A stretch of 64,000 bases of DNA, from the NCBI RefSeq assembly GCF_003018115.1, contig NZ_CP027457.1; one strand, given 5' to 3'. The translations under genes and the position numbers were made by a program. A model generated the notes under the pieces. It ran no database searches. It was given only the letters and a program-made list of their open reading frames with translations, and had not been told where the DNA came from. This DNA is from Escherichia coli (lineage in GTDB: Bacteria; Pseudomonadota; Gammaproteobacteria; Enterobacterales; Enterobacteriaceae). Positions 6,869 to 33,800 of the stretch are shown in pieces. Position 1 is the stretch's first letter; each line of letters begins with the position of its first letter.

Positions 6869-6895
6869 GGTTGTCAGAGCTGCAATAGCAGCCCC

Positions 6896-8388: not shown

Positions 8389-8449
8389 CACGGTAAGAAT
8401 GATACTCTGAGTTCAATTGACCTATAAACATTAACCAAGGCATCTACCA

Positions 8450-9414: not shown

Positions 9415-9660
9415 ATGAATATGAATGAAGATGAGATTTATCGCCATATCCGGCAGGCACTTTCCAGTGCGCCGCGTAACCAGTACACCGTCGAGCTACA
9501 CCTGCAAATGATTAAATATGCCGACGAACTGGAACACATTACGGCAAAAGCCTTTTGCGAAGGCACCGGTCTGAGCCAGAGCCTCGGTACCGAATTCAGC
9601 AAAATGCGTAACTTAACCCGTCGGTTGAAGGCCGCCGGTCTGAATACCGATCTGCTGTAA
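9415..9660 (+). CDS. small hypothetical protein immediately upstream of hsdM
   Basis: ORF 9355-9660 has protein-like composition but no convincing Shine-Dalgarno before TTG 9355 or ATG 9415/9421; ends 40 nt before hsdM. Confidence 0.3.
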   Translation: MNMNEDEIYRHIRQALSSAPRNQYTVELHLQMIKYADELEHITAKAFCEGTGLSQSLGTEFSKMRNLTRRLKAAGLNTDLL

Positions 9661-9699
9661 CCGACTTACGGCAGATTATCGCGCAAAACGAGATATTTA

Positions 9700-13445: not shown

Positions 13446-13456
13446 AAGGGAAACCT

Positions 13457-14107
13457 ATGACTACAGCGCCAGCCTCAATCCGCAAAAAGCCCTGATCTGG
13501 CGTATCGTCCATCGGGACAATATCCCGTGGATTCTGGACAATGGTCTGCACTGCGGCAACAGCCCGGTGCAGGCTGCTAACTGGATCAATATCGGCAACC
13601 CGGAGCTTATCGGCAAGCACGCCGGACATCCGGTACCTGTCGGGACGGGCGGGACACTGCGTGACTATGTGCCATTTTATTTTACCCCCTTCTCGCCAAT
13701 GCTGATGAACATCCACAGCGGACGTGGCGGCATTAAGCAACGCCCCAATGAAGAGATCGTTATTCTGGTCAGCAGCCTGCGGCACGTGGCAGCACACGAC
13801 GTGCCCTTCGTGTTTACCGACAGCCATGCTTACTATAACTGGACCAACTACTACACCAGTCTGGATAGTCTGGACCAGATCGACTGGCCCATTTTGCAGG
13901 CACGGGACTTTCGCCGCGATCCAGACGATCCGGCTAAATTTGAACGCTATCAGGCAGAGGCGCTAATCTGGCAACACTGCCCGATCTCGCTGCTGGATGG
14001 GATAATTTGTTACAGCGAAGAGGTCAGGTTACAATTAGAACAATGGTTGTTTCAGCGTAATCTAACAATGTCCGTTCACACACGGGCTGGATTGGTACTT
14101 CTCATGA
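13457..14107 (+). pseudogene. darT: DarT-like (DUF4433) DNA ADP-ribosyltransferase gene, reading frame disrupted as read
   Basis: ATG 13457 with AAGGG upstream opens a frame that stops after 12 codons; DarT-like sequence ([46 protein letters not shown]) continues in the -1 frame from about 13459 to 14103; the original frame resumes for the last codons before a TGA that overlaps the darG ATG (ATGA at 14104-14107). Confidence 0.55.
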
Positions 14108-15171
14108 TCACATATACACAAGGCAATTTACTGGACGCACCGGTGGAAGCTCTGGTGAATACGGTTAATACCGTCGGTGTCATGGGGAAAGGCATCGCGT
14201 TGATGTTTAAAGAGCGCTTCCACGAAAATATGAAAGCCTATGCCCTCGCCTGCAAACAAAAGCAGGTGATCACCGGCAAAATGTTCATTACCGAAACCGG
14301 GGAACTGATGGGACCGCGCTGGATTGTTAATTTTCCGACCAAACAGCACTGGCGCGCTGACTCCCGCATGGGGTGGATTGAAGATGGCTTACAAGACTTA
14401 CGTCGATTTTTGATTGAAGAGAACGTGCAATCCATCGCCATTCCACCGCTGGGCGCAGGCAACGGTGACTTGAACTGGCCGGACGTTCGGGCGCAGATTG
14501 AATCTGCCCTTGGCGACCTTCAGGACGTTGATATCCTGATTTACCAACCAACTGAAAAATACCAGAACGTTGCCAAAAGCACTGGCGTAAAAAAGCTCAC
14601 TCCCGCCAGAGCCGCCATCGCTGAACTGGTGCGTCGCTACTGGGTATTGGGGATGGAGTGCAGCCTACTGGAAATCCAGAAACTGGCCTGGCTGTTACAA
14701 CGCGCCCTTAAGCAGCATCAACAGGACGATATCCTCAAACTGCGGTTTGAAGCTCACTATTATGGCCCCTATGCGCCCAATCTGAACCATCTGCTTAATG
14801 CGCTGGACGGCACCTATCTTAAAGCCGAGAAACGCATCCCGGACAGCCAACCGCTGGATGTGATCTGGTTTAACGATCAGAAAAAAGAACACGTTAATGC
14901 GTATCTGAACAGCGAAGCCAGAGAGTGGCTACCGGCGCTGGAGCAGGTCAGCCAGTTAATTGACGGCTTTGAATCGCCGTTTGGTCTGGAGCTGCTGGCA
15001 ACCGTAGACTGGTTGCTGAGCCGTGGCGAATGTCAACCAACACTGGATTCCGTTAAGGAAGGGCTGCACCAGTGGCCTGCGGGCGAACACTGGGCCAGCC
15101 GTAAGTTGAGGCTGTTTGATAATAATAATCTGCAATTTGCCATTAACCGCGTAATGGAGTTCCATTGCTGA
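14104..15171 (+). CDS. darG: DarG-like macrodomain protein (predicted antitoxin / ADP-ribosyl hydrolase)
   Basis: [39 protein letters not shown] with IPPLGAGNG is a macrodomain signature matching my recollection of DarG; as read it is fused in frame to the upstream DarT-like region (track ORF 13567-15171). Confidence 0.7.
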
Positions 15172-15189
15172 GGGTTTAAGGAGCGCCTT

Positions 15190-18100
15190 TTGAGTACCGT
15201 GGGCCAGCGCGAACGCGCCACACAGCAGCGTCTGATTCAGTTTTTTGTTGAAGATTTAGGTTACCGCCATCTGAGTCACCGCACCGGGTACACCGGGAAC
15301 AGCAACATCGACACTAATATACTGAGCGCGTGGCTAAAACGGCGCGGCGTTAATGATACGTTGATCACCCGGGCGTTGCGGCAACTGGATTCCGCCGCCG
15401 CTCTGGGCGAAGGCAAAAAACTCTATTACGCCAATAAAGAGGTCTATCGCCTGCTACGTTACGGCGTGAAAGACAAAGAAGGCGCAGGCGAGCAGAACCA
15501 AACCGTGTGGCTGATTGACTGGGCCAACCCACAAGCCAATGATTTCGCCATCGCCGATGAGGTGACGGTCAAAGGCGAGTACTGCAAGCGCCCGGATCTG
15601 GTGCTGTACGTTAACGGCATTGCGCTGGGCGTGATTGAACTTAAGCGTTCGTCAGTGCACGTCAGCGAAGGCATCCGGCAGAATCTCGATAATCAAAAGA
15701 AAACCTTTATCCGCGATTTCTTCACCACTATGCAGTTAGTGATGGCGGGCAACGATACGCAGGGCCTGCGCTACGGCACCATCGAAACCCCGGAAAAATA
15801 CTATCTGGAGTGGAAAGAAGATAATCCAGGCGACTATACACATAAACTCGACTTTCATTTAAGTCGTCTGTGTAGCAAATCCAGGCTGTTGGATATCGTC
15901 CATAATTACATTGCCTTTGATGTCGGAGTGAAAAAACTCTGCCGCCATAATCAGTTCTTCGGCGTCGAGGCGGCTAAACAACATATTGCCCGTCGTGAAG
16001 GCGGTATTATCTGGCACACACAGGGATCGGGTAAAAGCCTGACGATGGTCTGGCTGGCGAAGTGGATCCGTGAAAATGTGCCAAACTCCCGCGTGTTGAT
16101 TGTGACTGACCGCACCGAACTGGATGAACAGATCGAAAGCGTGTTTATGGGCGTGAATGAAGATATTTATCGCACCTCCAGCGGCAACGATCTTATCGCA
16201 ACGCTCAATCATCCTAACCCGTGGCTCATTTGCTCGCTGGTGCATAAATTTGGTCGTCGCAGCGAAGCTGAAGACAATGCGGCTACCGACGCCTTTATCA
16301 CCGAATTACAGCAGTCCCTGACGAAAACATTCCGCGCCAAAGGCGATCTGTTTGTTTTTGTGGACGAGTGCCACCGCACACAATCCGGCAAGCTGCATAA
16401 CGCCATGACTGCCATTCTGCCGGACGCCCTGTTTATCGGTTTTACCGGCACACCGCTGATGAAGAAAGATAAGAAGAAGTCGGTTGAGGTGTTCGGCCCT
16501 TATATCCATACCTATAAATTTGATGAAGCGGTGGCCGACGGTGTGGTGCTGGATCTGCGCTACGAGGCACGCGATATTGACCAGTATCTGACATCAGAGA
16601 AAAAGGTCGATGACTGGTTTGAAGCCAAGACTCGCGGTTTGTCGAATTTAGCCAGGACCCAGCTTAAGCAAAAGTGGGGATCAATGCAGAAGCTGCTCTC
16701 CAGCAAGTCGAGGCTGGAGCAGATCGTTAACGACATTTTGCTGGATATGGATACCCGTCCACGCCTGATGGACGGGCGCGGCAACGCCATGCTGGTATGC
16801 AGCAGTATCTATCAAGCCTGCAAGGTTTACGAGATGTTCAGCCAGACCGAGCTGGCAGGAAAAGTAGCGATTGTGACCAGCTATCGCCCCGATGCCGCCA
16901 GCATCAAAGGCGAAGAAACGGGCGAAGGGTTAACGGAGAAACTCTCTAAACACGCCACCTATCGTAAAATGTTGGCTGACTATTTTGAACAAAGTGAAGA
17001 GAAGGCCGCCGCACGCATTACCGAGTTCGAGCGGGAAGTGAAACAGCGTTTTATTGAAGAGCCGGGGCAAATGCGCCTGCTTATCGTGGTGGATAAGCTG
17101 CTGACTGGCTTTGACGCGCCGTCCGCCACCTATCTCTACATTGATAAAACCATGACCGACCATACGCTGTTTCAGGCGATTTGTCGGGTGAACCGGCTGG
17201 ACGGTGAGGATAAAGAGTATGGCTATATTATCGATTATAAAGATCTGTTCCGTTCGCTGGATAAAGCGATTACCGATTACACCACGGGCGCGTTTGATGA
17301 TTACGATCGGGACGATGTGGCCGGGTTGCTGAAAGACAGGCTGGAGCAGGCGCAACTGGATCTCGACAGCGCGCTGGAGATGGTTCGCAGCTTATGTGAA
17401 CCCGTCAAAACCCCGCGCAGCCTGCAGGACTATCAGCACTATTTTTGCGGTGAATCAGGAGAGAATCAGACTTCGTTAAACGAAAAAGAGGCGCTGCGCC
17501 TGACATTTTACCAGTGCGTCGCCCGTCTGCTACGCGCTTATGCCAGCATCGCCAATGAAATGCCGGAAGCAGGCTACACTGCCGAAGAGGTAGAGAGCAT
17601 TCGCGCCGAAGTCGCTGAATTCGAAAAACTGCGCTATGAGATTAAGCTGACCAGCGGCGATCTTCTGGATATGAAGCGCTTTGAACCCGCTATGCGTCAT
17701 TTACTGGATATGTATGTTCGCGCCGATGATAGCGAAGTGCTGATGGATTTTGAAGAGTTAAGTCTGATTGAACTGATTGTCGAGAAAGGCTTGGCGGCGA
17801 CCGTCGCCCTGCCGGATGATATCCGTAATAATCAGGATGCGATGGCGGAAACCATCGAAAACAACGTGCGCAAAACCATCGTGGATGAAAACCCGGTTAA
17901 CCCAAAATACTATGGACGCATGTCGCAGCTGCTGGATGAACTGATTACCCTTCGCCGACAAAATGCGCTCAATTATCAGCAGTATCTGGAACGTATCCGC
18001 GATTTGTGTAAACAAGTCATCCGCCCGGAGCAAACCGCCGGAGCGTGCTACCCTGCCACCATGGATACACAAGCAAAGCGCGCCTTCTATGATAACTTCG

Positions 18101-19168: not shown

Positions 19169-19452
19169 TAGCATGGTTATCTCCTTAAAAAATTGAGGCG
19201 ACAACTATGCTGACACAGGGGGTTACTCACCGATCTCCTTCACGGTAATACGCAGTTCTTCAGAACCCGCCTCCGATACCAGCCTGGCGGTCGCCCCGGC
19301 GCAACAGAATAAATCAACCATCGTCAGACTGCGATCATTCGTAATGTTCCGGGGACCTCATCTTCAGTAAGCGTAAACTGACCGCCGTATGTAGCCATTA
19401 AGCCAGTATTGGTAACGTAGGTGCCCACCTTTTCAACTAGTGGACACCTGTT

Positions 19453-19878
19453 ATGGAACAGAAAATATTATCCTCAGAACCCCGCAGATCATTTTCAAAT
19501 GAGTTTAAACTTCAAATGGTTAAACTGGCTTCACAACCAGGAGCCTCTGTTGCCCGTATTGCCCGGGAACACGATATCAATGATAACCTCCTGTTCAAAT
19601 GGCTCAGGCTCTGGCAGAACGAAGGGCGTATATCGCGGCGTCTTCCGGTAACAATCTCTTCTGGCGCTGGCGTTGAATTATTACCTGTTGAGATAACGCC
19701 TGATGAGCAGAAAGAGCCTATGGCGGCTCTTACTCCGCTTTTATCCACTCCTTCACAAAGCACAGTCAGTGCCAGTTCCTGTAAAGTTGAGTTCCGCCAC
19801 GGTAACATGACGCTGGAAAATCCTTCACCAGAGCTGCTCACGGTGTTGATCCGTGAACTGACCGGGAGGGGACGATGA
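19453..19878 (+). CDS. tnpA: IS66 accessory protein TnpA (orfA)
   Basis: 141-aa ORF with HTH-like ASVARIAREHDINDNLLFKW; first ORF of the IS66 element. Confidence 0.8.
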   Translation: MEQKILSSEPRRSFSNEFKLQMVKLASQPGASVARIAREHDINDNLLFKWLRLWQNEGRISRRLPVTISSGAGVELLPVEITPDEQKEPMAALTPLLSTPSQSTVSASSCKVEFRHGNMTLENPSPELLTVLIRELTGRGR

Positions 19879-20225
19879 TCTCGCTCCCATCAGGTACCCG
19901 TATCTGGCTCGTTGCCGGCGTTACCGATATGCGTAAATCCTTCAACGGACTGGGAGAACAGGTACAACATGTGCTGAATGATAATCCCTTCTCCGGTCAC
20001 CTGTTTATCTTCCGTGGCCGACGGGGTGACACCGTCAAAATTCTTTGGGCTGATGCTGATGGTCTGTGCCTGTTCACCAAACGCCTGGAGGAAGGCCAGT
20101 TTATCTGGCCTGCGGTACGTGACGGCAAGGTATCCATTACCCGCTCGCAACTGGCAATGCTCCTCGATAAGCTGGACTGGCGTCAGCCAAAAACATCCAG
20201 CCGTAACTCACTGACAATGTTGTAA
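19875..20225 (+). CDS. tnpB: IS66 accessory protein TnpB (orfB)
   Basis: 116 aa; start overlaps the tnpA stop (ATGA); typical IS66 orfB position and size. Confidence 0.8.
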   Translation: MISLPSGTRIWLVAGVTDMRKSFNGLGEQVQHVLNDNPFSGHLFIFRGRRGDTVKILWADADGLCLFTKRLEEGQFIWPAVRDGKVSITRSQLAMLLDKLDWRQPKTSSRNSLTML

Positions 20226-20255
20226 AAAACTCCTGACCGCATTATAAAAACGGTC

Positions 20256-21869
20256 ATGAGTCAGAAATACCTCATTCGCATCGCAGAGCTGGAAAGATTG
20301 CTCTCTGAGCAGGCTGAAGCCCTCCGTCAGAAAGACCAGCAACTGAGTCTGGTTGAAGAGACGGAAGCCTTCCTGCGCTCTGCACTGACACGTGCCGAAG
20401 AAAAGATCGAAGAAGATGAACGGGAAATAGAACATCTGCGGGCTCAGATAGAAAAACTGCGCCGGATGCTGTTCGGTACCCGTTCTGAAAAACTGCGTCG
20501 TGAAGTTGAACTGGCTGAGGCTCTGCTGAAACAACGTGAACAGGACAGCGATCGTTACAGTGGGCGGGAAGACGATCCTCAGGTTCCCCGCCAGTTGCGA
20601 CAGTCGCGCCATCGTCGTCCGTTACCGGCACACCTTCCCCGTGAAATACACCGCCTGGAGCCAGAAGAAAGCTGTTGCCCGGAGTGTGGCGGTGAACTGG
20701 ATTATCTGGGGGAAGTCAGCGCTGAACAGCTGGAACTGGTGAGCAGTGCCCTGAAAGTGATCCGCACAGAACGGGTAAAAAAAGCCTGTACAAAATGTGA
20801 CTGTATTGTTGAAGCACCGGCGCCGTCCCGCCCGATAGAGCGTGGTATCGCGGGCCCCGGATTACTTGCCCGCGTGTTAACGGGAAAATACTGCGAACAT
20901 CTGCCACTGTATCGTCAGAGTGAAATCTTTGCCCGCCAGGGTGTCGAACTGAGCCGGGCCTTACTCTCCAACTGGGTTGACGCGTGCTGCCAGTTAATGA
21001 CACCGGTGAATGATACCCTGTACCGTTATGTAATGAACACCCGCAAGGTTCACACTGATGACACACCGGTAAAGGTACTGGCACCGGGTCAGAAAAAGGC
21101 GAAAACAGGGCGTATCTGGACGTATGTCCGGGATGATCGCAATGTGGGTTCGTCATCTCCTCCAGCGGTCTGGTTCGCGTACTCGCCGAACCGGCAGGGG
21201 AAACACCCGGAGCAACACCTCCGCCCCTTCCGGGGTATCCTGCAGGCGGATGCGTTCACAGGTTACGACAGGTTGTTCAGTGCAGAACGTGAAGGTGGTG
21301 CACTGACAGAAGTTGCGTGCTGGGCCCATGCCCGGCGAAAAATCCACGATGTATACATCAGCAGCAAAAGTGCGACGGCAGAAGAAGCCCTGAAGCGAAT
21401 CAGTGAACTGTACGCCATCGAGGATGAAATACGGGGATTACCGGAGTCAGAGCGTCTTGCCGTCAGGCAGCAGCGAAGCAAAGTGTTACTGACGTCGCTG
21501 CATGAATGGATGGTGGAGAAGAATGGTACGCTGTCGAAAAAATCCAGACTGGGCGAAGCGTTCAGCTATGTACTGAATCAGTGGGATGCCCTCTGTTATT
21601 ACAGTGATGACGGTCTGGCGGAGGCGGATAATAATGCTGCGGAAAGAGCGCTTCGTGCAGTCTGTCTCGGAAAGAAAAACTTTATGTTCTTTGGCAGCGA
21701 TCACGGCGGCGAGCGTGGAGCACTGTTGTACGGGCTGATCGGCACCTGCCGTCTGAACGGTATCGATCCGGAAGCGTATCTGCGCCATATCCTGAGCGTA
21801 CTGCCGGAATGGCCTTCCAACCGAGTTGATGAACTCCTGCCATGGAACGTAGTACTCACCAATAAATAA
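20256..21869 (+). CDS. tnpC: IS66-family transposase TnpC
   Basis: 537 aa; N-terminal coiled-coil/leucine-zipper-like region and Cys cluster CCPECGGE...CTKCDC, ends LLPWNVVLTNK. Confidence 0.9.
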   Translation: MSQKYLIRIAELERLLSEQAEALRQKDQQLSLVEETEAFLRSALTRAEEKIEEDEREIEHLRAQIEKLRRMLFGTRSEKLRREVELAEALLKQREQDSDRYSGREDDPQVPRQLRQSRHRRPLPAHLPREIHRLEPEESCCPECGGELDYLGEVSAEQLELVSSALKVIRTERVKKACTKCDCIVEAPAPSRPIERGIAGPGLLARVLTGKYCEHLPLYRQSEIFARQGVELSRALLSNWVDACCQLMTPVNDTLYRYVMNTRKVHTDDTPVKVLAPGQKKAKTGRIWTYVRDDRNVGSSSPPAVWFAYSPNRQGKHPEQHLRPFRGILQADAFTGYDRLFSAEREGGALTEVACWAHARRKIHDVYISSKSATAEEALKRISELYAIEDEIRGLPESERLAVRQQRSKVLLTSLHEWMVEKNGTLSKKSRLGEAFSYVLNQWDALCYYSDDGLAEADNNAAERALRAVCLGKKNFMFFGSDHGGERGALLYGLIGTCRLNGIDPEAYLRHILSVLPEWPSNRVDELLPWNVVLTNK

Positions 21870-21909
21870 GCGTCAATACGGTGCTCCGTTGACGCTTACA
21901 GCTTTCCCA

Positions 21910-22284
21910 CTATTTCTTGATTCCTAAACGGAACATATCAGTTGGGAATAAAGGTTGTATTATCACTTCATCATTAAAAATGAATAATTTGGGCGATAAA
22001 GCTGTTACGTCATAGATATTTTCAGCGATTAATCTTAGATTTGACCTAAAAACTGGAATACTTGCATCATCTGCAAAGACAAACATGTCATCGTTTTTTA
22101 CAGAGTTTGCACACAATAGCTCATCAAAACTCTCATAATCAGAATGCCAGATCTCTGACCAAGTAACACTTCCTTTCGCGAGAGGGTACTTATTTAAAAT
22201 GCCCAGAGCCTCCTGCTGAGCCAGCCCCTCTACTATATTAAAATCAGCACTCAGTGCTTCCCGACACTCATCAAATAAAGTCAT
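21910..22284 (-). CDS. cdiI: orphan CDI immunity protein (pair 4)
   Basis: 124-aa ORF directly downstream of orphan cdiA-CT 22290-23657 with a 5-nt gap. Confidence 0.6.
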   Translation of the reverse strand: MTLFDECREALSADFNIVEGLAQQEALGILNKYPLAKGSVTWSEIWHSDYESFDELLCANSVKNDDMFVFADDASIPVFRSNLRLIAENIYDVTALSPKLFIFNDEVIIQPLFPTDMFRLGIKK

Positions 22285-22289
22285 TTGCT

Positions 22290-23657
22290 CTACCTGTTTA
22301 GCTGTTTCAATATTGTTTCAAAAGACTTTTCATTGCCTTCAAAAGGTATGACTTGCTTCACCGCTTTTCCAGGGCCTTTACCCTGCGAGTAATCCCATAT
22401 ATTGATGTGTGTGCCTTTTTCAGGATCATAATCAACACGCCAACCAACTTTTCCGTCGCTGGATTGCCGCCCTATGACTTTCCCATTACCAGCGCTGACT
22501 TCCAAACGTCCGATAACTGGCTTAGAGTCCGCTCCTAAATTACCTACAAGATCCAATGCCTTGTTTCGAGCAGTTTCCCAGTTTTTCTCTGGCTTGAGGA
22601 TTTGTTCAATTTTAGGCTGGGAATTCCCTTTAACCTTACTAATTCCCCCAAATGCTGACGCCGCAGCGCTCGCGACTATTCCCGCCTGAACTTCATCCAA
22701 ACCGTATTCTTCTTGGAGTGCTTCCGAGACTTTGTTGGTCGCGACAACCCCTTCAGCCTGCATTTGCTGCGCAAAAGTCGCCGTCAGATCGTAGACCATT
22801 TTGATCGGGATATCTTCACCCAGAGCACGATCTATTGCCTGCTTCACCGCCAGACTGTCAGTCAGTACATCACCGTATTTCTGCTGGCAGGTTGCCGGGC
22901 TGGCTGCACAGTCACTGATCAGTTGCTTTTGCTGTGCCGTACTCAACTCTTCGTACTTTTTGATAATACCGCCGCAGTCACCGCCTTTCGCCTGACAGGA
23001 CTTCATTTCAGCGGACCAAGCATCTATCTGCTTACTGCTCAGATAGTTATTCTCAACAGCATTCTTCCCGCTTTGTGCTCCCACTGCTGCTGATGCGGTG
23101 CTGTTTCCGGTAAGACCTCCGGCCAGCCCTGCTGACACGGTTGCCAGCGTACTTATCGTTTGCTTCTGCTCTTCACTGAGGTCTGACTGTTTCACGCCCG
23201 GATACAGCATGCCGGCAATCGCTCTGACTGCCAGCTCTCCCGTTGCTGCGCCTGCTGCACCGGCAGCAACATTATTACCCTGCATTGCCGCCACTGCGCC
23301 GCCCAAAATGGCGTGAGCAATGGCGTTTACTGCCGGGTCTTTTTCTGTTGATTTCAGCAGGTGCGCCAGTTCCGGAGCCGAAGTTCCGGCCAGAGCACCC
23401 GCTAAATTACCCCCCGCCAGCCCCTGAAGCGCGGCCTGGATACCCCGCTGAATTTCACTGCCGGTACCATACTTCGCCATTTCATCCCTGTAAGCCTGCG
23501 TGTCACGCAGTTTTGCCAGATATGCCTGCCGCTGCTCTTCCGTCGCATCCGCCGGAACAGGCCCATATTTATCCTGCGCAGCCTTCAACGCATTCAGTTC
23601 CCCCTGCGTCCGCGCAATATCAGCCACCTGACTGCCTATGTCACTGATAAGCCCCAC
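22290..23657 (-). CDS. cdiA-CT: orphan CdiA C-terminal fragment (pre-toxin region, VENN motif, toxin domain)
   Basis: Contains [11 protein letters not shown]; region before VENN is homologous to the pre-toxin region of the full cdiA in this window; no upstream secretion domain. Confidence 0.75.
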
Positions 23658-23742
23658 TGTCTGCAGACGCTGCTGCTCTTTTTCCTTGTCAAAGATGGAA
23701 AAGCAAAAAAACCAGCCAACTGAACTAGCTGGTAGTTAAAGT

Positions 23743-24006
23743 CTATTTGATTTTGCTTAAAATATTATTGACTATCGGTATTACAGAACTAACCAATTGC
23801 TCTTCCTCAACTGTATACAAAAGCAATTCGATCTCATTCTCCGCATTAAATAACATTGTATGGAGCCACTTTTCCTCAACAGCAACAATTTGGCTTTCCG
23901 CAGCATAAATTTCTGATTGAATACTTTGTACCGTTATTTTCCCTTCAAGAAAGTTTTTACAAGAGTGTTGTAACCTCTCGATCACCTCAGGATAAATCCA
24001 ACTCAT
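23743..24006 (-). CDS. putative immunity protein (pair 3)
   Basis: 87-aa acidic ORF overlapping the stop of the upstream toxin-like ORF by 4 nt. Confidence 0.45.
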   Translation of the reverse strand: MSWIYPEVIERLQHSCKNFLEGKITVQSIQSEIYAAESQIVAVEEKWLHTMLFNAENEIELLLYTVEEEQLVSSVIPIVNNILSKIK

Positions 24007-24719
24007 TGCCCACTCCTGCGAAGAATAGTAACAATAATATTACTGTTATTTTCAGTGACTACACCTACGTCACCACTCCAATAAGTCGTTCTAGTTACGC
24101 CATTAACGACACTATTTTGAGGAGTTCCTTCTTTGATAACACTTTCAACCATATTCGGCGTTATATTTCTCCCTGGGCCAACTGTGCCGGCTGGAGAACC
24201 AGATGGCTGCATTCTATCAACAGCATGTTGTGAATACAAACGATGACCTATTTGTGCATATTGTCGCCCATCTACTGTAACCTTTCGATAATTTTGCCAA
24301 GAGTCCCAAGGTAACTTTTCAGAACTATTAGGTACGTTTTCTGATGAGGTTTTCTCATTACGTTGCTCTATTGATTCATTATTCCTGGCGTTCTCCTCAT
24401 CCTGCGGCTCCCATCCCCCCGGTGTTCCAGCACCTGCGCCACCAAGCTCAGCTTTCTCCTTGTCCGTAGCGCTCGCTACGTCTTTGCCCAGATTCGGCTG
24501 TTTGTTTTCGTCTGTATTGTCGCCATTCAGCACATACCCCGGCCCCCGGGCACCATCGCGACTCGGATCACGTACAGCACACTGTTCCCGTGAGCCTTCA
24601 CAACCACCACCGGTATCCCAGCTATTATCATTCCCGGTATCCTTACTGGCATTACCTGTAGCACCAGCTATTGCTGCTGCCGTATTAGCTGCTGTTTCAG
24701 TGGCTATCACGTTCAGCAT
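24003..24719 (-). CDS. orphan polymorphic-toxin C-terminal domain protein (no VENN visible)
   Basis: 238-aa ORF in the orphan array, coupled to a small downstream ORF; toxin fold not assignable from sequence alone. Confidence 0.5.
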   Translation of the reverse strand: MLNVIATETAANTAAAIAGATGNASKDTGNDNSWDTGGGCEGSREQCAVRDPSRDGARGPGYVLNGDNTDENKQPNLGKDVASATDKEKAELGGAGAGTPGGWEPQDEENARNNESIEQRNEKTSSENVPNSSEKLPWDSWQNYRKVTVDGRQYAQIGHRLYSQHAVDRMQPSGSPAGTVGPGRNITPNMVESVIKEGTPQNSVVNGVTRTTYWSGDVGVVTENNSNIIVTILRRSGQ

Positions 24720-24736
24720 ATTGTTTTCAGCAACAA

Positions 24737-24955
24737 CTATTTACGATAGTATCTTCGCATTTGTAGATAGAGTTGTAACCAAATCCCAGCACCTCCCCAT
24801 AAGCCAACTACTGCGCCAATTATTCCGTATTTTACATACACCTCAGAAGGTATTGGTTCCCGAGCTATAAGCCAGATACTAACCACTATTCCAATAGAGC
24901 AAGTAGCTATAGATATAAGTAACAACTTAATAAGAAGTAGTAGATGTTTTTTCAT
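24737..24955 (-). CDS. cdiI: small membrane immunity protein (pair 2)
   Basis: 72 aa, two hydrophobic segments (LLLLIKLLLISIATCSIGIVVSIWLI and IIGAVVGLWGGAGIWLQLYL); overlaps the upstream toxin stop. Confidence 0.6.
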   Translation of the reverse strand: MKKHLLLLIKLLLISIATCSIGIVVSIWLIAREPIPSEVYVKYGIIGAVVGLWGGAGIWLQLYLQMRRYYRK

Positions 24956-25809
24956 TTTTTGTCTCCATCAACTTCTTTTTGCGTTGCGCTGCTTGCACCT
25001 TCTGATACGAATGAACCAACAAATCCACCAAATGTTCCTGGTATAGAGCTCATTTGGCCGCCTTGATACATACCGTATCCGATAGACTTTTCCGAATATT
25101 GCAGTGAATATTTACTGGCGTCCATTCCCAGTTGATTTTTGATGTATTGAGCTTCTAACTTATTAGTAATTGAAGCCCCAATGTTATAGCCAAGGCCTGT
25201 ACCAGCCATGCTACCCACTACTGATGCGGTACTGTCCTGGCCTTCAATCTGGCTGCTCATGTAAGCGCTACCGGCACCCAACAACTGATTAGCGTAATAT
25301 CCTTTCCCGGCTGTACCTACACCAGTCAAGCCTGACATCATGAAACTGAGATAATCGAACTTATCACCGATATTTCCCGTACCAATTTGTACCGCACCAT
25401 TAGCCCCATAGCTCAGCCCGGCACTGACAAATTTTTCAGTCAGCGTGGCTGATGATGTTAACAATGAACCCGCTCCGGCAACCGTACCCCAGTAATTTTC
25501 CGGTTCCCCGAAGAAAGCCAGAGCCTTATCACCTTTCGATGTGTTGTTGTTCAGATAGTTCAGGTCATAGCTGTTACTTTCAGTGACGTAGTTCTTCACG
25601 TCCTGGTTTTCCAGCGAACCATACAACCAGCCAGGCCGACCTGCCGCGCTGAGTCCGCCCTCAATATTCCATTTATCTTCCCCGGACAGAGCCGTCAGAG
25701 GATCTGTGGCCACATCAATGTGTAATTTCTGTCGGTGCTCTGCGCTTATTACAGCATATTTATTCTGAATATCGCCGCAGTCTCCACCCACTTTACGACA
25801 GGCCGTCAT
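24952..25809 (-). CDS. cdiA-CT: orphan CdiA-CT, glycine-rich membrane-active (ionophore-like) toxin domain
   Basis: In-frame VVVENNYLS is encoded at about 25836-25860, upstream of the first Met; body rich in G-x-x-x-G/A runs. Confidence 0.65.
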   Translation of the reverse strand: MTACRKVGGDCGDIQNKYAVISAEHRQKLHIDVATDPLTALSGEDKWNIEGGLSAAGRPGWLYGSLENQDVKNYVTESNSYDLNYLNNNTSKGDKALAFFGEPENYWGTVAGAGSLLTSSATLTEKFVSAGLSYGANGAVQIGTGNIGDKFDYLSFMMSGLTGVGTAGKGYYANQLLGAGSAYMSSQIEGQDSTASVVGSMAGTGLGYNIGASITNKLEAQYIKNQLGMDASKYSLQYSEKSIGYGMYQGGQMSSIPGTFGGFVGSFVSEGASSATQKEVDGDKK

Positions 25810-26173
25810 TTCTCTGTCAAAAGCATGCGCCTCGTCGTAGCTGAGGTAGTTATTCTCAACAACAACTCTTTCCGACGTAAGTTGCTGCGATGAACCCTAT
25901 TTTCTCCTTGCCTTTCCGTGAATTACAACCGTTTTCCCCTGCTGTACTTCCTGCCTGCCAACTTTTTGCCCCGACGCGCCTTTTTCGTCTGAACACGCTA
26001 CCGCCCCGGTGAAAAGTCCACCGAGTAAATAGCCTGCGGCTATTTAACATAACGCGCGGGAATTATGCGCAGTTCAGGAGGCCGAACCACGCATAATCAG
26101 CGTTATGTCTTGCGCCCTTCAGAAGCCTGCGATAGTGCAGGCTGACAGTCAGGAGACCCAGACGGTTAAGATA

Positions 26174-26467
26174 TTAACTGTCGGGCTCTCCTTTTTTATT
26201 ATTTTTATAATCAATCATCAAGTTATTCACCTCATTCCATAGTTGCTCATCGTTAAATTCGTATTCTTCACGATCATTATCTGGGTTGTACATATCAGCC
26301 ACACAGAAGACACTGGATAATAATTCACTTAGATTATCATTATCTTGCTTAAGTAGGTTACTATCACGCTCACCCTTCCACTTCGCCATATAAGTGTCGG
26401 TAAAATATTCAGCCGATATATTCTTAGCAAGAAAATCATCAATGTATTTTTTAAGAGACTGACTCAT
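26174..26467 (-). CDS. cdiI: orphan CDI immunity protein (pair 1)
   Basis: 97-aa acidic ORF whose start overlaps the stop of orphan toxin 26464-27237. Confidence 0.55.
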   Translation of the reverse strand: MSQSLKKYIDDFLAKNISAEYFTDTYMAKWKGERDSNLLKQDNDNLSELLSSVFCVADMYNPDNDREEYEFNDEQLWNEVNNLMIDYKNNKKGEPDS

Positions 26468-27237
26468 CTTAATGTCCCGTTATTTATGAAGTTTTCATAT
26501 TGCTTCGTTTGAGGATCAAGCTTCCACCCACTAACAAAATTACCAGATTTATCAATTACAACCACATTATTAGTTTGTGGATTGAAGAACACCTTTGATT
26601 CTGGAATTAATAGGTATGTCCCATGTTCATAAGTCGTCTTATTATCTAAATGTGATTTGATGGCAGCCTGATATTCTGCAATGGTATCACTATTTTTCTT
26701 AGTTGTTATTACGCCAAAATCAGAAGCATGTTTAAATTTCTTATCTAACTGTTTTGCGCTGAAAGCGACACTATCAGAGACGATTGTAGCTCCAGCATTT
26801 GGAATTTTCTTCCCTGGAAGTATAAGGCTAGCCAGTATTCCGCCAGTTGCTTCCAGCGCAGCCTGGTTCCCTCCATACGCTTGTTTCACATTCTCTGCTA
26901 CTGCTGACCAGGTTTCACTTTGCATCAGCGCTTTAACGCTGTCTGCCACTGCCTGATTTTTACCCGCCAAATCACTCAGTGCTTTATCACAATAGCTTTC
27001 GCCGGTTGCACATGAGGCGAGCGCCATTGCCGCATCACCCACATAATCGGCTGAGCCTATTGCCGTATCACCGGAGTCAGCGATGACATTAATAATGCCG
27101 TTGGCAATAGCCGATGAGGCTCCGTCTCCCAGCTTATCCCTGACCTGTGTTTTCCACCATTCAGCACTTTGTTTGACCGATTCCCTGGCCTTATCACCCG
27201 CCAGCGAGTTATTCTCAACAACAACTCTTTCCGACAT
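26464..27237 (-). CDS. cdiA-CT: orphan CdiA-CT-like toxin beginning MSERVVVENNSL
   Basis: VENN-type junction directly after its own ATG; 257 aa. Confidence 0.65.
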   Translation of the reverse strand: MSERVVVENNSLAGDKARESVKQSAEWWKTQVRDKLGDGASSAIANGIINVIADSGDTAIGSADYVGDAAMALASCATGESYCDKALSDLAGKNQAVADSVKALMQSETWSAVAENVKQAYGGNQAALEATGGILASLILPGKKIPNAGATIVSDSVAFSAKQLDKKFKHASDFGVITTKKNSDTIAEYQAAIKSHLDNKTTYEHGTYLLIPESKVFFNPQTNNVVVIDKSGNFVSGWKLDPQTKQYENFINNGTLR

Positions 27238-27438
27238 AAGTTGCTGCGATGAACCCGGATTCTCCCTGCATTTTCCGTTAGTTACAGCCGATTTTCCCTG
27301 TTGTACTTCCTGCCCGCCAACTTTTTGTGCTGTTAAGCGTTTCTGGCCCCGCAGACGCTACCGCCCCGCCGTGACGCGCCACCATCATATAAGCAAACTA
27401 CAGCACCACTTAGGATGGTGGTGTCTTGGATTTATATT

Positions 27439-27822
27439 TCAATTAAGAAGTTCCTTTGATACGTTACCAGTATCAAAAAACTCTTTTAAGATCTTTACAA
27501 TAAGTTCACAGTCTTTTGTAAGCTGAGATTCCGGCCAGTAATCACCAAGAATCACCATTTTTGTATCAGGTTTAGATGAGTCCCAGTACGTTCTTACTTG
27601 GTATTCATCTTCAAAAATTTCACCTAATGTTATCAAGTAATAACCATTCTCCGTTCTGATCTGAAGCATTTCAGCGCTATTATCGCCACTGTTCTGTATA
27701 TCAAGAGTAAGTGTTCCTTTTTTTCCCTGAATTAGTTTAAACTGATTTAATACCATGTCCCAATTTGAGATCTGTTTATTGCCACCTGTTTCGCCCAGTG
27801 TCCAACTCACTTTAAAATTCAT
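27439..27822 (-). CDS. cdiI: cognate CDI immunity protein for the CdiA C-terminal toxin
   Basis: 127-aa ORF starting 2 nt after the cdiA stop; canonical cdiA-cdiI arrangement. Confidence 0.7.
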   Translation of the reverse strand: MNFKVSWTLGETGGNKQISNWDMVLNQFKLIQGKKGTLTLDIQNSGDNSAEMLQIRTENGYYLITLGEIFEDEYQVRTYWDSSKPDTKMVILGDYWPESQLTKDCELIVKILKEFFDTGNVSKELLN

Positions 27823-27823
27823 T

Positions 27824-30800
27824 TTAATCCCTAACCTTGAGAGATTTCATGCCAGGCTGCCAGTAGAGGACTGATCCTGTAGCCTCTTCATAAATTGTTA
27901 AAGATTTTAGCCCCGCTTTATCAGCCATGGCTGCTATATCACCGCGGCAATAACCACATACAGGCTCTTTAGATACACTCATTGTCATCTCACGCCCTTG
28001 AGACATACCCTTTTCAAAAGCTTGCTGTATAACACCTACTTCAGCATGAGCTGTAGCCATATTGCCGTTAGGAAGAGGCTTGTTTTGCTTATCTATTTTA
28101 GCTTGGATTCGTCCATCAATGAGTGTTGGCTTATTCACATCTGCTAAGTTGGAAGGCCTTGCACCCTGATTAGTATCAGTAAACTTAGCTCCATCAACAT
28201 TACCTTTCGCTACGACCTTAAGATTAGCATCAACGATTTTACTTAATTGTTTTGCCGCAGCAGAACCCAAAATTGGTGTCACCGAAGCCGCAATGCTCTC
28301 CAGACCCTGCTTTGTTTCGGTGTAGCTTTCTGCGGTCTGACGATCCACCCCTTTGGTGACCATGAAATAGTTAATCATGGCGTCTTTCACCTGTTGCTGA
28401 TTCTGTGCATCAACACTGGTGATATCGAGGAGATTGACCATCTGACCATACGCATCAGCGTATTGCTGGCTGTATTTCGAGTTATAAGGGCCATCTTCGT
28501 ACCCTTCTTTCGACGCAATAACTTTCAGTCTTGCGCTGGCACACGCTGAACTACCCGCATTACCATTACCGCAGGCAGCAATAACCTCCTTATCACTGGC
28601 AATATCTTTCTCACGCAGAGCATTATATTTCTGTTGCGCCTTTTCGCGCTCTGCCGGATCTTTACTATTTTTAAGCGTCTGTTTTGCTATCTCAAGCTCT
28701 GTCTTTTCAGACACGCTAAGATAGTTATTCTCAACCGCGTTCCTGCCTGCCTGTGCCCCCGTACCGGCAGACGCCGTACTGTTGCCTGCAAGCCCGCCCG
28801 CAATACCTGAGGCAATGGTGGCCAACATGCTGATTTGCTGACGTTCCTGTTCACTCAGGTTATCAGTACGACCACCATAGTAGTTATCAATGATATACCG
28901 GGCTGCAAGTTCACCGCTGAATGCCCCTGCAGCACCGGAAGCCGCATTGTTTCCGCCCAGTTGTGCGGCAAGCGCTCCCCAGACTGCGTGAGCCATCAGG
29001 TTTGCTTCCCGGTTATCGCCGGTGGCCTGTTTTATAAGCTGTGCCACTGCCGGATTCAGACCGCCAGCCAGTATCTGCCCCGGATTCCCTGCATTCAGTC
29101 CGCCCAGCACACCCGTGATGGCCTGTACCACCATCTGCGGCGTACTGCCCGTACCGTAGCCTTTCATGACCTCTCTGTATTCCGGGGTCTCCCGCAACTG
29201 TGCATCGCTCATGCCAGGATGCTCTTTCCTGGCTGCTTTCATCGCTTCAGTTTCGCCATACGTCATGACGATGTTACTCATCTGACCGCTAATCTGGCTG
29301 ATAACCTGCGCTTCCTGCAGACGCTTCTGCTCTTTCTCCCTGTCAAATATCGGTGCAATGCTGCCGTTGGCGTTTTCCGGGTCCCGGCTGAGCCCGGCAA
29401 TATCCTGCTTCTGACTCTCATTATCACGGATAATGAGATTTCCGCCGCTGATGGCGGATGACGTGGTACCTTCAGCATGTCCACTGCTGCCGGACATACC
29501 GGTAAGTGCGTTCGCCGCACCGGCTATTGCATTTGAGGCCACCATCTGGCTGGCTGACATCCCTGAGCCACCCGATAAACTGATTCCGGTATGGCTGGCT
29601 TTATAGTCTGCCTGGTTATGGATATCCGACCAGCCCAGCGTATTGGTATTGAGGCTGTTTTTGTCATCCGTTGCCGTGGACGCAATTACCGCACCATTGA
29701 GCTGAGTGTGATTCCCAACAGTGACATCAAACCCGTCTTTTCCGGCGTAGATACCACTCTGTTCCCGGACAGAATCGTAATTGCTTTTAATTTTGTCCTG
29801 ACTGATGCTGGCATAGCCGCTGCCGGACATTGAGCCAAACGTGAAGCTTCCACCTGCAGCCACGCTGTTCTGTCTGCTGTCGTAACGGTCACTGTCCTGA
29901 AGGCTCGAAATGGTCAGGTTGTTGCCGACATCTGCTGTGACTTTCTCGCCACTGACCTGAGCCCCCGACAGGGTGGTATCACGTCCGCTTGTGAGGGAGA
30001 CATTTTTACCCGCATCCAGCGTGGTTTCGGTCCAGGTCGTGCCGTTGCCTTTCTCCCTGCCCTCTGAACCATTGATACCGGCGAAGATACTGAGGCCTCC
30101 GCCATTGGTTCCACCACCAAAGCTGACGCCCACGCCGCCACCTTTGCTGCTGTTCTTCCCGGTTGTCTGTCGGGTGTCAGCGGCGGCAGCCAGCAGAATA
30201 TCGTTCTGTGCATTCAGGCTGGTGTCATTGCCGGACTTAATCTGGCTCCCGGTAATGAGAATATCGCCGCTGTTGTTATGGTCCTTATTTTTCCCCGTGG
30301 CAGTGACAGAGACATTGTTACCGGCGCTGAGGGTTGAGCCGGAGACGATATCGTGCTGATATTTCGTCTCAGACTTCGACTGCTGATGGTTGAGCGAAAT
30401 GCTCACGCCGATACCATTATTCGGGTCAGCACTCTGTTGCTGCAGTCCGTGGTTAACACCGGCCTGTACACCAGACAGAACCGCCTGTGTTCCTTTCAGT
30501 GCCGCCAGACGGCTGTCGCTGGTTTCTTTCGCCTCCCGGGCCATGGTGGCAGCATTATTGATGGCACTGCCCACTGTGCCGGAAAGGGCAACCGTCAGCC
30601 CGCTTTTCTTCTGCTCAAATTTTTCGTCCACAGTACGACGGTCATGCCCCGGGTCAACCACCACACTGTCACCGGTAATGCTGATATCCCGGTTCGCAAT
30701 CACATCCGAACCGCTGATATGAGCCTGTTTGCCCGCGGTAATACTGACATTACCAGCAGTGGAGCCGATGGTGCTGGCACTCTGACTCTGCGTTGTCCCG

Positions 30801-33800
30801 GCCTCGCGGCGGTCGTGCGTTGTCTTACTGCTGCCAGTGGTGAAACCAATACCGCCGGTACCCGTCAGACCGGATTTCTTCGTTTCCTTAAAGCGCCAGG
30901 ACGTATCTGTACTGGTGGCAGCAAGAACATCAACATGGTTATCCGCCGCCAGTGACACATCCCAGTCAGCCACCACATCCGAACCCTGTACCGTCAGGTT
31001 ATTACCGGCGTTAACGGTCACGCGGTTTCCCGACAGCAGGGAGCCCTTCTCACGGGTGACGCTGTCTTCCGTGATGGTCCGGGTGGTCTGATGGCTGAGG
31101 AGACGGTTACGGGTTTCCCCTGATTCACTGTAGTGATAATCACTTTCCGTGGCAGTACCCAGTACGATGTCATGACCGGCATTCACACGGATATCGCCCT
31201 TTGCCGTTACAGCGGTCGCAACTGAGGTGATATCCCGTCCGGCAGTAACCGTAATGTCACCGCCACTGGTCATGTCTGTTCCCTGCTGCCGGACCGAATC
31301 ATGAACCGTCTTCATGCTGAAAGTGCTGTCGTGGTCACCTGCGCCTGTGGACTCCGCAGCCATGTTCACATCCCGTCCGGCGCGGATAGCCATACTGTTT
31401 TCAGCCGTAATACCGGCAGCCTGGCTGTTCACATCACGACCGGCGGAAAGCATCAGACTGTTCCCGGCAGTGACCGTGGGGGCCACGGCATGAGTTTCAT
31501 ACCACCCGGACCCGCCATAGCGACGACGTTCTCCGGCCTGTATCGCGTTCATGTTCAGGTCATTACCGGCGGACAGTAACACGCTGTCACCGGCAGAAAC
31601 GGCGGCACCGGTGATACTGATATCCCCGGCTGCGCCCATAAACAGTGAGTCCGTTGCCCTGACAGCAGCCAGCGGACCGGTATCCGTTCCGCTGAAATGG
31701 TTATATCCGTTGTTCATCGCCCACTGTTCTGTCCGGGTGAGGTTACTGATGTTTCCGGTGGCGCTTTCCAGGGATACGGTTTTACCGCTGATGACTGAGC
31801 TGATATTGCCGATATCCCCGATGGCCTTCAGGTTCAGTGCACCACCGGCGTTTATCAGTCCGGCATTCAGGTTGTCGATACTACCTGTGCTGTCGAGCAG
31901 GAGGTCATTCTGTGCGTTGATGCTGCCGCCGCTGTTGGTGATATTGCCACCCGCAAGCTGCACGTTGTTCCCGCTGATAACGCTGCCATTATGAAGGGTG
32001 ATATCTTCCGGAGACAGATACAGTTTCGGAACCATGACTGTCTGTCCGTTGATGGTGACTGACTCCCACCACAGCAGGCTTCTGGTCAGTTGTGCAACCT
32101 GCCCGGCGGTCAGCGACACTCCAAAGGTCAGTCCGAGCGCTTTCTGTTGCGCTGCCGCGCTGTCCATCAGGTATTTCATCTGCGCCAGGTCAGAGCCTGT
32201 GCCGTTAATATAACGTGAGCCCGTCTGGTTCAGTATGACGTTACTGACATACCGGGTATCAAAAGCCGCATCCCCCAGAAAGCGGTAATCTTTTTCCGGT
32301 TTCAGGCCAAGACGGTCAAGAATGTACGACGAGCCCAGAAACTGTTTTTCATCGGTATATGCCGGGTCTGTTTCTCGTGGTGCCTGTCCGGGTTGCATCC
32401 TGAGCAGGTCATACAGTCCGGCAAACAGACTGCTGTCCACCTTTCCGAGACCATCCAGTTTCGGGTTCACCGTAATCAGATACGGACTGTCCGGGTCCGT
32501 GGACGGGACAAAATAACCATTGTTACCGGATGGCAGGGGATAGTTGCTTACACTTGCCCCGGACAGCGACAGCGCACCCGGGATATCCTTCAGCGTATCC
32601 GGCAGCGCGTCATTCCATACAGGGCCGGTTATCCCGGTACCGCTTTCATTCAGCAGGGCTTCACCGCTCACCCCCTGACTGACCGTCGGTGGTGTCAGGG
32701 AGTTCAGCGAAGGCACCGTTATCGTGTTACCTGCACCACCTGCCCGGGGCATGACAGTGGTATTACCGGTGTCAGTGGCAAAGCTGGCAGACACATCACC
32801 GGCAGCGCTGATAACCGCACGGTACTGACCTGCCGGAGAGGTGCCACTGGCTTCTGTCGCATCCGGCGAGACCTGGCGATAGACCTTATACCATGGCTCA
32901 GTAAACCACGCTTTGGGGAGTGAGCCGGAGGCAAGCCGCCAGACCGTTTCCTTTCCGGTGGTCCCCTCCTGCCAGCCCTGATTGTTCAGTGTGTCGCCAC
33001 TCAGGGTCATACTGCCACCGGCGAGAAGAAACGATGCCTCATTATCCAGTCGTCCTGCACGGATATGCATATCAGCGCCGCCGGATATCCGGGCAGCATG
33101 ACCGGAGGCACTGACTGTCACCGTTTCCGTATCGCCCGTACGGATACGGTATTCATCAGGTACCGTGGCACCCTCCCCCCAGTACACGGCCAGATATTCC
33201 ACACCATCATGCCGGACAACACCCCACCAACGGTTATTTTCCGGAACCGGTGAAATCACCCCGCGACTGCTTCCAGGAATGACCTCATGGCTGGCCGAAA
33301 TGGCATCCCAGGAATTCAGCAGATGCGCCGTATTCATGGTGATATCGCCACGTGTGGTTTCAATATTACCGGAACGGTTAATGATTTCGCTGTTTGCCGT
33401 ACCGCTGCTGTCCTTCTGTACCCACAGACTGTTGCCGGCCAGGATATCACCATGCTGGTTATGCAGACGGTCTGTAAACAGCTTCAGGTTATTCCCCGCA
33501 TAAATCAGCGCACTGTTCAGCAGGGTACCGGCCACATTCATTGTCAGACTGCCTGCCGTGCCGGTAAAACCACTGATGGTGATATCACTCCGGCTGTTCA
33601 GACTCACATCGCCACCGGCCTGAAGTGAACCCGGTGCGTTAAGGAAAAGACGCTGTGCGCTGAAAACACTGTTGCCTTTACCGGCAGTCAGCGTTCCATT
33701 GTTGGTGAATGCCTCTCCGGCACCGAGCACCATGGCATCACCCAGCATGACACCGCCGTTGGTGATGGCATTTTGCGACGTGACGGAAAGGGTTTTCCCT

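Follow-up and report, generated by a model that had tools for sequence, protein, structure and literature searches.

Four orphan cdiA-CT/cdiI modules, bounded on VENN codons and apparently of mosaic origin, lie behind cdiBAI in an Escherichia coli genome

Orphan pairs of a CdiA C-terminal toxin region (CT) and its immunity gene were described downstream of the contact-dependent growth inhibition (CDI) operon cdiBAI by Poole et al. 2011 (PMC3150448), who showed that the orphan toxins start at the VENN motif and usually lack initiation signals, that the upstream cdiA sequence retained with them is variable or absent, and that the blocks of homology between strains run from VENN to VENN. These orphans were co-transcribed with cdiBAI, the orphan CdiI protein was made and the orphan toxin was not, and an orphan CT was functional once it was fused to CdiA (PMC3150448). 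A later review gives the same picture of orphan modules (PMC9086364). Here, we analyzed a 64-kb stretch of an E. coli genome (this whole stretch is called the window) in which four toxin/immunity modules, numbered o1 to o4 outward from cdiI, follow a cdiBAI operon. As in EC93 and EC869 (PMC3150448), the modules lie on the same strand directly 3′ of cdiBAI and pair a toxin that starts at VENN with a small immunity gene, and an earlier note on this DNA, which had called them orphan toxin/immunity modules, was right and agrees with the published phenomenon. The combination and order of the modules differ from those of EC93 and EC869 and are particular to this strain lineage, and two of the modules carry a lipoprotein-type leader instead of pre-VENN sequence derived from cdiA. 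We conclude, with a probability of about 0.88, that the region consists of four orphan cdiA-CT/cdiI modules behind an E. coli cdiBAI, that the cassettes are bounded on VENN codons and have mosaic origins, and that switching of toxins within this strain is rare.

The resident operon is encoded on the minus strand by cdiB (37514-39280), which specifies a TpsB/ShlB-type outer-membrane transporter of 588 aa (ShlB/FhaC/HecB family in the RefSeq annotation of an identical locus), cdiA (27824-37501; 3225 aa; VENN codons at 28724-28735) and cdiI (27439-27822; 127 aa; DUF6911 family). The open reading frame (ORF) coordinates confirm four toxin-like ORFs downstream of cdiI, each followed by a small ORF, as had been proposed. 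All four pairs lie on the minus strand 3′ of cdiI, and their toxin ORFs, of 238-455 aa, contain no two-partner secretion (TPS), filamentous hemagglutinin (FHA) or receptor-binding region. The o1 toxin (26464-27237; 257 aa) begins at an ATG six codons 5′ of its VENN codons (27208-27219), and its stop overlaps the start of a colicin-D-immunity-like gene (26174-26467; 97 aa) in an ATGA. The o2 toxin (24952-25860) has its VENN codons at 25849-25860 and its first ATG only at 25809, which gives an ORF call of 24952-25809, with the frame open from there back past VENN as far as 25896; its partner (24737-24955; 72 aa), a hydrophobic membrane protein to judge from the translation, again starts in an ATGA overlap. 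The o3 toxin (24003-24719; 238 aa), named a DUF4258-domain protein in RefSeq, has its ATG directly 3′ of an AENN junction, and its immunity gene (23743-24006; 87 aa; ATGA overlap) encodes a protein identical to WP_000118523.1 of strain C11. The o4 module is a true cdiA 3′ fragment (22290-23696) with an ORF at 22290-23657, homology to cdiA that reaches 23696 and VENN codons at 23046-23057, and it is followed, 5 nt after the toxin stop, by an immunity gene of 124 aa (21910-22284). The overlap of toxin and immunity ORFs that the earlier note had seen in every pair therefore holds for three pairs and fails for the fourth.

The 12-mer GTTATTCTCAAC (in plus-strand reading; its reverse complement, GTT GAG AAT AAC, encodes VENN) occurs exactly four times in the window, at 23046, 25849, 27208 and 28724, compared to a chance expectation of 0.32, and none of 100 shuffles reached four. 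The presence of the same motif in cdiA and three orphans, as claimed before, is thus upheld, with one of its positions corrected by 15 nt (27208 and not 27193). The claim that the module at 24003-24719 (o3) lacks VENN did not hold. The frame 5′ of its ATG reads I-V-V-A-E-N-N (24720-24740; codons ATA GTT GTT GCT GAA AAC AAT), in which the V-V-A-E-N-N junction itself (GTT GTT GCT GAA AAC AAT, minus strand) occupies 24720-24737. The copy of o3 in strain C11 reads ...AQSGKTTVENN-MLNVIATE, with the codons GTT GAA AAC AAT and a PT-VENN domain in front, and strain CFS3292 has AAENN at the corresponding junction. Judged by these copies, the o3 junction is VENN written in alternative codons with a V-to-A change, which is why the 12-mer search missed it. 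All the toxin fragments thus start at a VENN junction, with VENN in o1, o2 and o4 and VVAENN in o3. The PT-VENN domain (Pfam PF04829) lies directly N-terminal of the toxin in o4 only (1e-20); its profile found no match in o1, o2 or o3, and the DNA upstream of o1-o3 showed no homology to PT-VENN coding sequence.

The origin of the cassettes was investigated by comparison with 5426 complete E. coli genomes. Positions 21800-27900 are 100% identical to E. coli 2014C-4135 (NZ_CP027310.1), and only one of the 5426 genomes covers at least 80% of the array. The individual cassettes have separate relatives. In strain 89-3156, the resident CT/immunity cassette (28738-27193) has a counterpart of 99.5% identity that is an orphan and follows another cdiA. 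The o1 cassette (27233-25849) recurs with 99.5% identity in GXU-23-25-310, where it makes up the 3′ end of a cdiA of 9.85 kb plus the cdiI that follows; the immunity protein encoded after this full-length cdiA is that of o1 (WP_021578776.1). In CFS3292 a full-length cdiA terminates in the o2 cassette (25863-24720; 95.5% identity), and o2 also serves as the deployed cdiA toxin of QA-1986 630. Positions 24732-23109 are 89.8% identical to the EC869-like array of strain C11, which carries CdiA-o11; o2, o3 and the pre-VENN stretch of o4 are 90-95% identical to parts of that array. The o4 CT/immunity pair is found in 122 E. coli genomes, including A0 34/86, often under features named 'cdiA' or 'hemagglutinin repeat', and the whole o3 module is found in 33, as an orphan in each of the examples listed (C11, 12089 and O22:H8 strain 154). 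The cassette boundaries across strains all fall on VENN codons, and the o2/o3 crossover falls inside the V/A codon. Recombinant cdiA alleles carrying orphan toxins, which the earlier note had suggested looking for, were thus found in other strains, with o1, o2 and o4 ending full-length cdiA genes. Because other strains have the resident toxin as an orphan and have o1, o2 and o4 at the end of cdiA, swapping at VENN does occur over evolutionary time, and the alignments make such exchange, with partners other than the strain's own cdiA, well supported. The o4 module is the displaced 3′ end of a different cdiA lineage, and cassette turnover is better explained by exchange with incoming DNA through crossovers at VENN or in the leaders of ~165 nt that precede o1 and o2.

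Homology around VENN had also been proposed to allow the expressed CdiA toxin to be swapped for an orphan one. The junctions were aligned, the array was compared with cdiA by blastn, and exact matches were taken against the 3′ kilobase of the resident cdiA. The longest exact matches were 13 nt for o1, 14 nt for o2, 8 nt for o3 and 17 nt for o4; those of o1, o2 and o4 sit on the VENN codons, and that of o3 is a chance match elsewhere. Only ~21 nt around VENN are common to cdiA and o1 or o2, and the ~165 nt 5′ of their VENN codons are unrelated to cdiA or to PT-VENN coding DNA. The pre-VENN coding stretch of o4 (~640 nt) shows 59% global identity to cdiA and three local segments of 70-72% identity by blastn, with no identical run longer than 11 nt. 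The shared motif was therefore found as claimed, but the in-strain mechanism is largely unsupported by the earlier note's own refuting condition (no VENN-flanking homology beyond the motif), the homology being essentially that of the motif alone. RecA recombination in E. coli requires a minimum of ~23-27 identical bases for efficiency and falls steeply with divergence. Since the identity here is 13-17 nt, below what RecA needs, RecA-driven switching in this strain is poorly supported by the sequences compared.

We consider it unlikely, on this evidence, that RecA recombines the VENN flanks of an orphan with the strain's own cdiA, so that the intervening DNA is deleted and the orphan toxin becomes expressed. 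The VENN 12-mer common to cdiA, o1, o2 and o4, the occurrence of the same cassettes as orphans in some strains and at the end of cdiA in others, joined at VENN, and the function of an EC93 orphan fused to cdiA (PMC3150448) would fit such switching, but the short exact matches, the divergence of the o4 pre-VENN stretch (59-72% identity, identical runs of at most 11 nt) and the origin of the o1 and o2 upstream sequences outside cdiA do not. Since the resident cdiA and the orphans share only the VENN motif of 12-17 nt, homologous toxin switching within the strain should be rare. A known parallel for such switching is in Salmonella, where Koskiniemi et al. are said to have observed, in 2014, orphan Rhs-CT/RhsI modules recombining into the main rhs gene. 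Those modules are like the ones here in being silent C-terminal toxin/immunity cassettes that follow a large delivery gene and are bounded by a conserved peptide motif; there, however, long near-identical upstream homology reportedly drives RecA-dependent switching, whereas the present orphans have 13-17 nt in common with the resident cdiA. The array illustrates that boundaries fall on VENN codons even without flanking homology, and that having orphans does not by itself imply an ability to switch the deployed toxin.

Several observations weigh against this reading of the array as silent, rarely switching cdiA ends. Rare illegitimate or short-homology recombination may take place at the 13-17 nt of identity. 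A full-length cdiA with the o3 toxin domain was not found in the E. coli genomes or in the protein database, where hits were at most 185 aa, and the status of o3 as a former CdiA tip depends on the C11 copy with its PT-VENN domain. The ATGs at the o1 and o3 junctions are in frame and RefSeq lists both toxins as complete coding sequences, so that some cytoplasmic translation of the o1 and o3 toxins may occur.

Each cassette appears to encode a two-domain CDI toxin, composed of an inner-membrane entry domain and a toxin domain, together with a predicted cognate immunity protein. Residues 1-166 of the resident CT match PDB 6VEK at 7e-70 (E. coli 3006-like entry domain), and its toxin domain matches Pfam Deam_C (2e-51) and MafB19-deam (2e-6); by these matches, the resident CT is an EC3006-like (PtsG-type) entry domain joined to a toxin with a cytidine-deaminase fold, and it corresponds to toxin type 17 in a published table of E. 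coli CDI toxins (PMC11630599). The o1 toxin matches Pfam Colicin_D (PF11429; 4e-17) and colicin D in PDB (3e-28), its N-terminal domain matches 8SSK (1e-37), and its immunity protein matches Pfam Colicin_immun (1e-20). In o1 a toxin of the Colicin_D family is thus paired with a partner of the Colicin_immun family, and the module is predicted to be an entry domain with a colicin-D-type tRNase. For o4, the toxin matches chain A (3e-67) and the immunity protein chain I (2e-77) of PDB 5T86, which are the two chains of one co-crystal. The N-terminal domain of o2 matches PDB 4G6U (EC869 CdiA-CT o11) at 7e-14; its C-terminus is Gly-rich with a GxxxGxxxG glycine zipper (GSMAGTGLG), which was seen by eye, and its partner is hydrophobic. 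Group 4 CDI ionophores have a YciB-type entry domain and a glycine-zipper helical C-terminal domain, and small membrane CdiI proteins are typical of CDI ionophores (PMC11630599). The o2 module fits this pattern and is a candidate YciB-dependent group 4 ionophore. The o3 toxin had no match in the Pfam scan, although its RefSeq name refers to DUF4258, listed as CDI toxin type 8 in the table cited above (PMC11630599). A scan of all ten proteins against NCBIfam gave no match.

Between the upstream stop and 25809 there is no start codon for o2, o4 has only an internal GTG, and the ATGs at or near the o1 and o3 junctions have no evident Shine-Dalgarno sequence. A terminator-like hairpin (23711-23733, minus strand) with a 10-bp stem followed by TTTTTTT lies between the o3 immunity gene and o4. 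By analogy with Poole et al. 2011 (PMC3150448), the array would be read through from the cdi promoter at least to this hairpin. Because this strong terminator-like structure (23733-23711) separates the o3 immunity gene from o4, transcription that starts at the cdi promoter may reach o4 only poorly. Nine promoter-like sites were found within the array compared to 10.2 expected, which gives no support for internal promoters, and Rfam at the gathering threshold found nothing within the array. The same hairpin junction is also present in the EC869-type array of strain C11. As they stand, the orphan toxin fragments would be undeliverable because they are without the TPS, FHA and receptor-binding parts of CdiA. 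The present benefit of the array would probably lie mainly in extra immunity proteins and in a silent reservoir of toxins.

The sequences directly ahead of o1 and o2, both on the minus strand, differ in kind from those of the other modules. Leader 1 (27220-27368) and leader 2 (25861-26050) are decayed lipoprotein signal-linker modules ahead of the o1 and o2 VENN codons, respectively, and they form a direct repeat of 163 nt that is 82% identical (27368-27207 and 26008-25848). The leader family has 26 occurrences spread over 18 E. coli genomes, every one of them immediately 5′ of an orphan VENN that is followed by varied toxins, and it was also found in Citrobacter, Pluralibacter, Pseudocitrobacter, Proteus, Pantoea, Rosenbergiella, Yokenella and a metagenome-assembled genome of the Aeromonadaceae. 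The leader never runs on into a long cdiA ORF, with at most 72 codons open upstream. Decay of PT-VENN coding sequence was considered as the source of the leaders and rejected, as an nhmmer profile of 14 leaders scored at best 0.1 bits against six genuine pre-VENN regions, which is within the range of codon shuffles. Translation in the VENN frame gives the leader family the form of a lipoprotein precursor, with examples such as MPKKLTRLMSLLLCQVIFTGAVAC followed by SGEKGASGQKV...ERVVVENN and MPKKLTRLMSLLLCQVIFTGAVAC followed by SGEKGASGQKVGRQEVQQGK..HGK.REK....ERVVVENN. Leader 2 reads ...LLGGLFTGAVAC followed by SDEKGASGQKVGRQEVQQGKTVVIHGKARRK and then a stop (25897-25899) that lies 12 codons 5′ of VENN; it keeps the h-region and the AVAC of the lipobox and has no in-frame Met. 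In leader 1 the lipobox Cys is changed to Ser and the frame is shifted. Neither leader of the window has the full set of features of a bacterial lipoprotein precursor (in-frame Met, basic n-region, hydrophobic h-region and a PROSITE PS51257-type lipobox, [LVI..][AS..][GAS]C). A PS51257-like lipobox pattern was found in seven of eight intact relatives tested, and the Cys of these relatives is followed by S, T or A.

These intact relatives came from profile searches, which found proteins of 210-576 aa (P0037-P0040, P0047 and P0050 in our numbering) in which the N-terminus of the leader is joined by way of VENN to entry and toxin domains of CDI type. One locus (L019) has an intact leader ORF of 279 aa with its own immunity gene, and another (L026) has a Gly-rich leader-toxin of 346 aa with a membrane immunity protein. 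A C-x5-C pair just N-terminal to ERVVVENN is frequent in intact proteins such as P0037, P0038 and P0003 (for example, CSSQQC, CSSPEC and CTLAGC) and lost from the decayed E. coli copies (GSSQQL); it may form a small disulfide loop beside the VENN processing site.

A different function for the start of the leader is suggested by its nucleotide sequence. Leader 2 contains a perfect ops 12-mer, GGCGGTAGCGTG (25994-26005), in sense orientation ahead of o2, and leader 1 contains an ops-like sequence with one mismatch, GGCGGTAGCGTC (27354-27365), in sense orientation ahead of o1. An ops/JUMPstart element at this place could recruit RfaH and keep transcription, and translation independent of a Shine-Dalgarno sequence, going through the untranslated toxins into the immunity genes. 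The two copies are the only GGCGGTAG sites in the 64 kb, one per leader, but this number is within chance (1.29 expected); Rfam JUMPstart (RF01707) scores 20.3 bits at 25994-26023, below its gathering score of 35 and with E = 0.75. Intact homologues of several genera conserve the 14-mer even where changes would be synonymous; the copies that diverge most have it in degraded form, however, and its conservation is no better than that of the rest of the leader. The motif corresponds exactly to the lipobox codons G-A-V-A-C, and this coding function explains its presence. A search of the literature found no paper linking RfaH to CDI, and nothing relevant linking RfaH, JUMPstart or lipoproteins to CDI orphans. 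RfaH antitermination is thus rejected as the principal explanation by the coincidence with the lipobox codons and the unexceptional conservation, and we regard it as highly improbable; the 14-mer may nevertheless have a dual role, as ops and as lipobox codons.

The intact leader genes directly follow a unit composed of a divergent helix-turn-helix repressor gene, a gene for a DnaG/Toprim primase of ~1030 aa, a tyrosine integrase gene and a ParD/DinJ-ParE/RelE pair. This unit is tandemly repeated with a period of 7.4-7.8 kb, and the arrays, found at L027 (3300-19200), L026 (1-11800) and L004 (14194-22148), adjoin cdiA-cdiI; each unit ends in an intact lipoprotein-VENN-toxin gene and an immunity gene. 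In L027 the array lies directly after cdiA-cdiI and has SymE-like genes between the units. In GXU-23-25-310 a single unit of 7791 bp lies between direct repeats of the 164-nt leader that are 99% identical, and relative to QA-1986 630 it has been inserted after 'o1 immunity plus leader' and ahead of the next VENN. Of the 5426 complete E. coli genomes, only four have the part with the integrase and the toxin-antitoxin pair, in each case within a cdi orphan array. The window contains none of the genes of the element, and its o2 leader is 98% identical to an element-borne leader. The link between the leader and the element thus comes from related loci and not from the window.

From these loci, o1 and o2 (and the VVVENN flavour of the o3 junction) could be relics of stand-alone genes encoding a lipoprotein signal, a linker, VENN and a toxin, rather than displaced cdiA ends, and could have been delivered by primase/tyrosine-integrase/ParDE elements of ~7.5 kb that recombine through the leader of ~165 nt. 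We give this origin an even chance. It is in line with the lipoprotein-like reading of the leader family in the VENN frame, the existence of intact ORFs of 210-576 aa with CDI-type C-termini, the lipobox in seven of eight relatives, the end of the open frame within 72 codons upstream, the position of the intact genes directly after tandem units beside cdiA-cdiI, the 7791-bp unit of GXU-23-25-310 between nearly identical leader repeats and the 98% identity of the o2 leader to an element-borne copy. On the other hand, both leaders of the window are decayed and the window is without primase or integrase, the element is rare in E. coli, and lipidation, export, excision and integration are all putative. 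The flanking repeats could also stem from homologous and not site-specific recombination, and the leader could be a small lipoprotein gene in its own right that happens to adjoin VENN.

A more specific proposal, which we offer tentatively and rate at somewhat less than even, is that the leaders derive from polymorphic toxins of Enterobacterales that form a class apparently not described before and consist of a lipoprotein signal, a linker of ~45 aa, VENN and CDI-type entry and toxin domains and are accompanied by an immunity gene. Such toxins would be cargo at the 3′ end of the ~7.5-kb elements, which would insert, often in tandem, into cdi loci within the leader; the leader would serve as both export signal and docking site, and crossovers at VENN would then move the cassettes onto cdiA. 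We infer that cdi loci receive toxin/immunity cassettes from elements of this kind when these recombine within the leader and that o1 and o2, which carry a decayed lipoprotein-signal leader in place of cdiA sequence, are the remnants of such events. If true, this proposal provides a vehicle and a docking sequence that move CDI toxin cassettes between genomes, and with it a possible presentation of the same toxins that is lipoprotein-anchored and independent of CdiA; it would address the question of how new CT/immunity modules arrive at cdi loci.

Three known systems resemble parts of this arrangement. The colicin D operon is like o1 in that the o1 toxin domain is of the colicin D tRNase family and its partner of the matching immunity family, and in that a small lipoprotein-like ORF remnant follows the o1 immunity gene at the position of the lysis gene in colicin operons. 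The delivery context of o1, however, is CdiA and VENN, not a colicin translocation or receptor domain, and the leader of intact relatives is fused in frame to the next toxin. The leader is not known to have sequence similarity to colicin lysis proteins, which carry a CQANYIRDVQGG motif. SitA lipoprotein polymorphic toxins of Myxococcus are reportedly delivered by outer-membrane exchange, which is said to be specific to myxobacteria. Like the intact leader relatives, they combine an N-terminal lipoprotein signal and a conserved N-terminal part with a polymorphic toxin at the C-terminus, and they have an immunity gene next to them, but they belong to another phylum, no sequence relation has been shown, and the copies in the window are pseudogenes. 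Mobile CDI 'megacircles' of Burkholderia thailandensis, as cited in a review (PMC9086364), are like the present elements in that CDI-associated DNA moves as a unit; according to that citation they carry the whole bcpAIOB locus, whereas the elements with primase, tyrosine integrase and ParDE have a toxin/immunity cassette as their only CDI cargo and integrate within orphan arrays of Enterobacterales.

The array itself is a known arrangement of catalogued toxin types and adds nothing conceptually. It is already annotated in RefSeq, where the names in 2014C-4135 are 'colicin D domain-containing', 'colicin immunity domain-containing', 'DUF4258 domain-containing', 'VENN motif pre-toxin domain-containing (partial)' and 'CDI toxin immunity protein'. 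The connection between the leader and the integrase element might be the only new part; a description of this connection was not found in the literature searched, the coverage of which was incomplete, and we do not firmly claim novelty.

At its distal end the array abuts an IS66-family element (tnpA, tnpB, tnpC; 19363-21902, approximate ends; plus strand), which probably truncates it. One IS66-family copy lies between the M48 peptidase gene and the array in the window (19363-21902), compared to three in 2014C-4135 (5900-14100 of that locus, L001), which has ~5.3 kb more there; the flanks are 98.0-99.5% identical, so that the window stems from a close relative of that genome or assembly and not from the same one. 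The cdi island is flanked by a type I restriction-modification system and, upstream of the restriction genes, by a darT (frameshifted)/darG toxin-antitoxin pair (L001 369-2048; window ~13500-15200 by offset), and these surroundings suggest a defence and competition island. Elsewhere in the window and unrelated to the array, Rfam scores above the gathering threshold were obtained for Ysr251 (58219-58412, plus strand; 188 bits) and for an IS102 RNA (3995-4231, minus strand; 74.8 bits).

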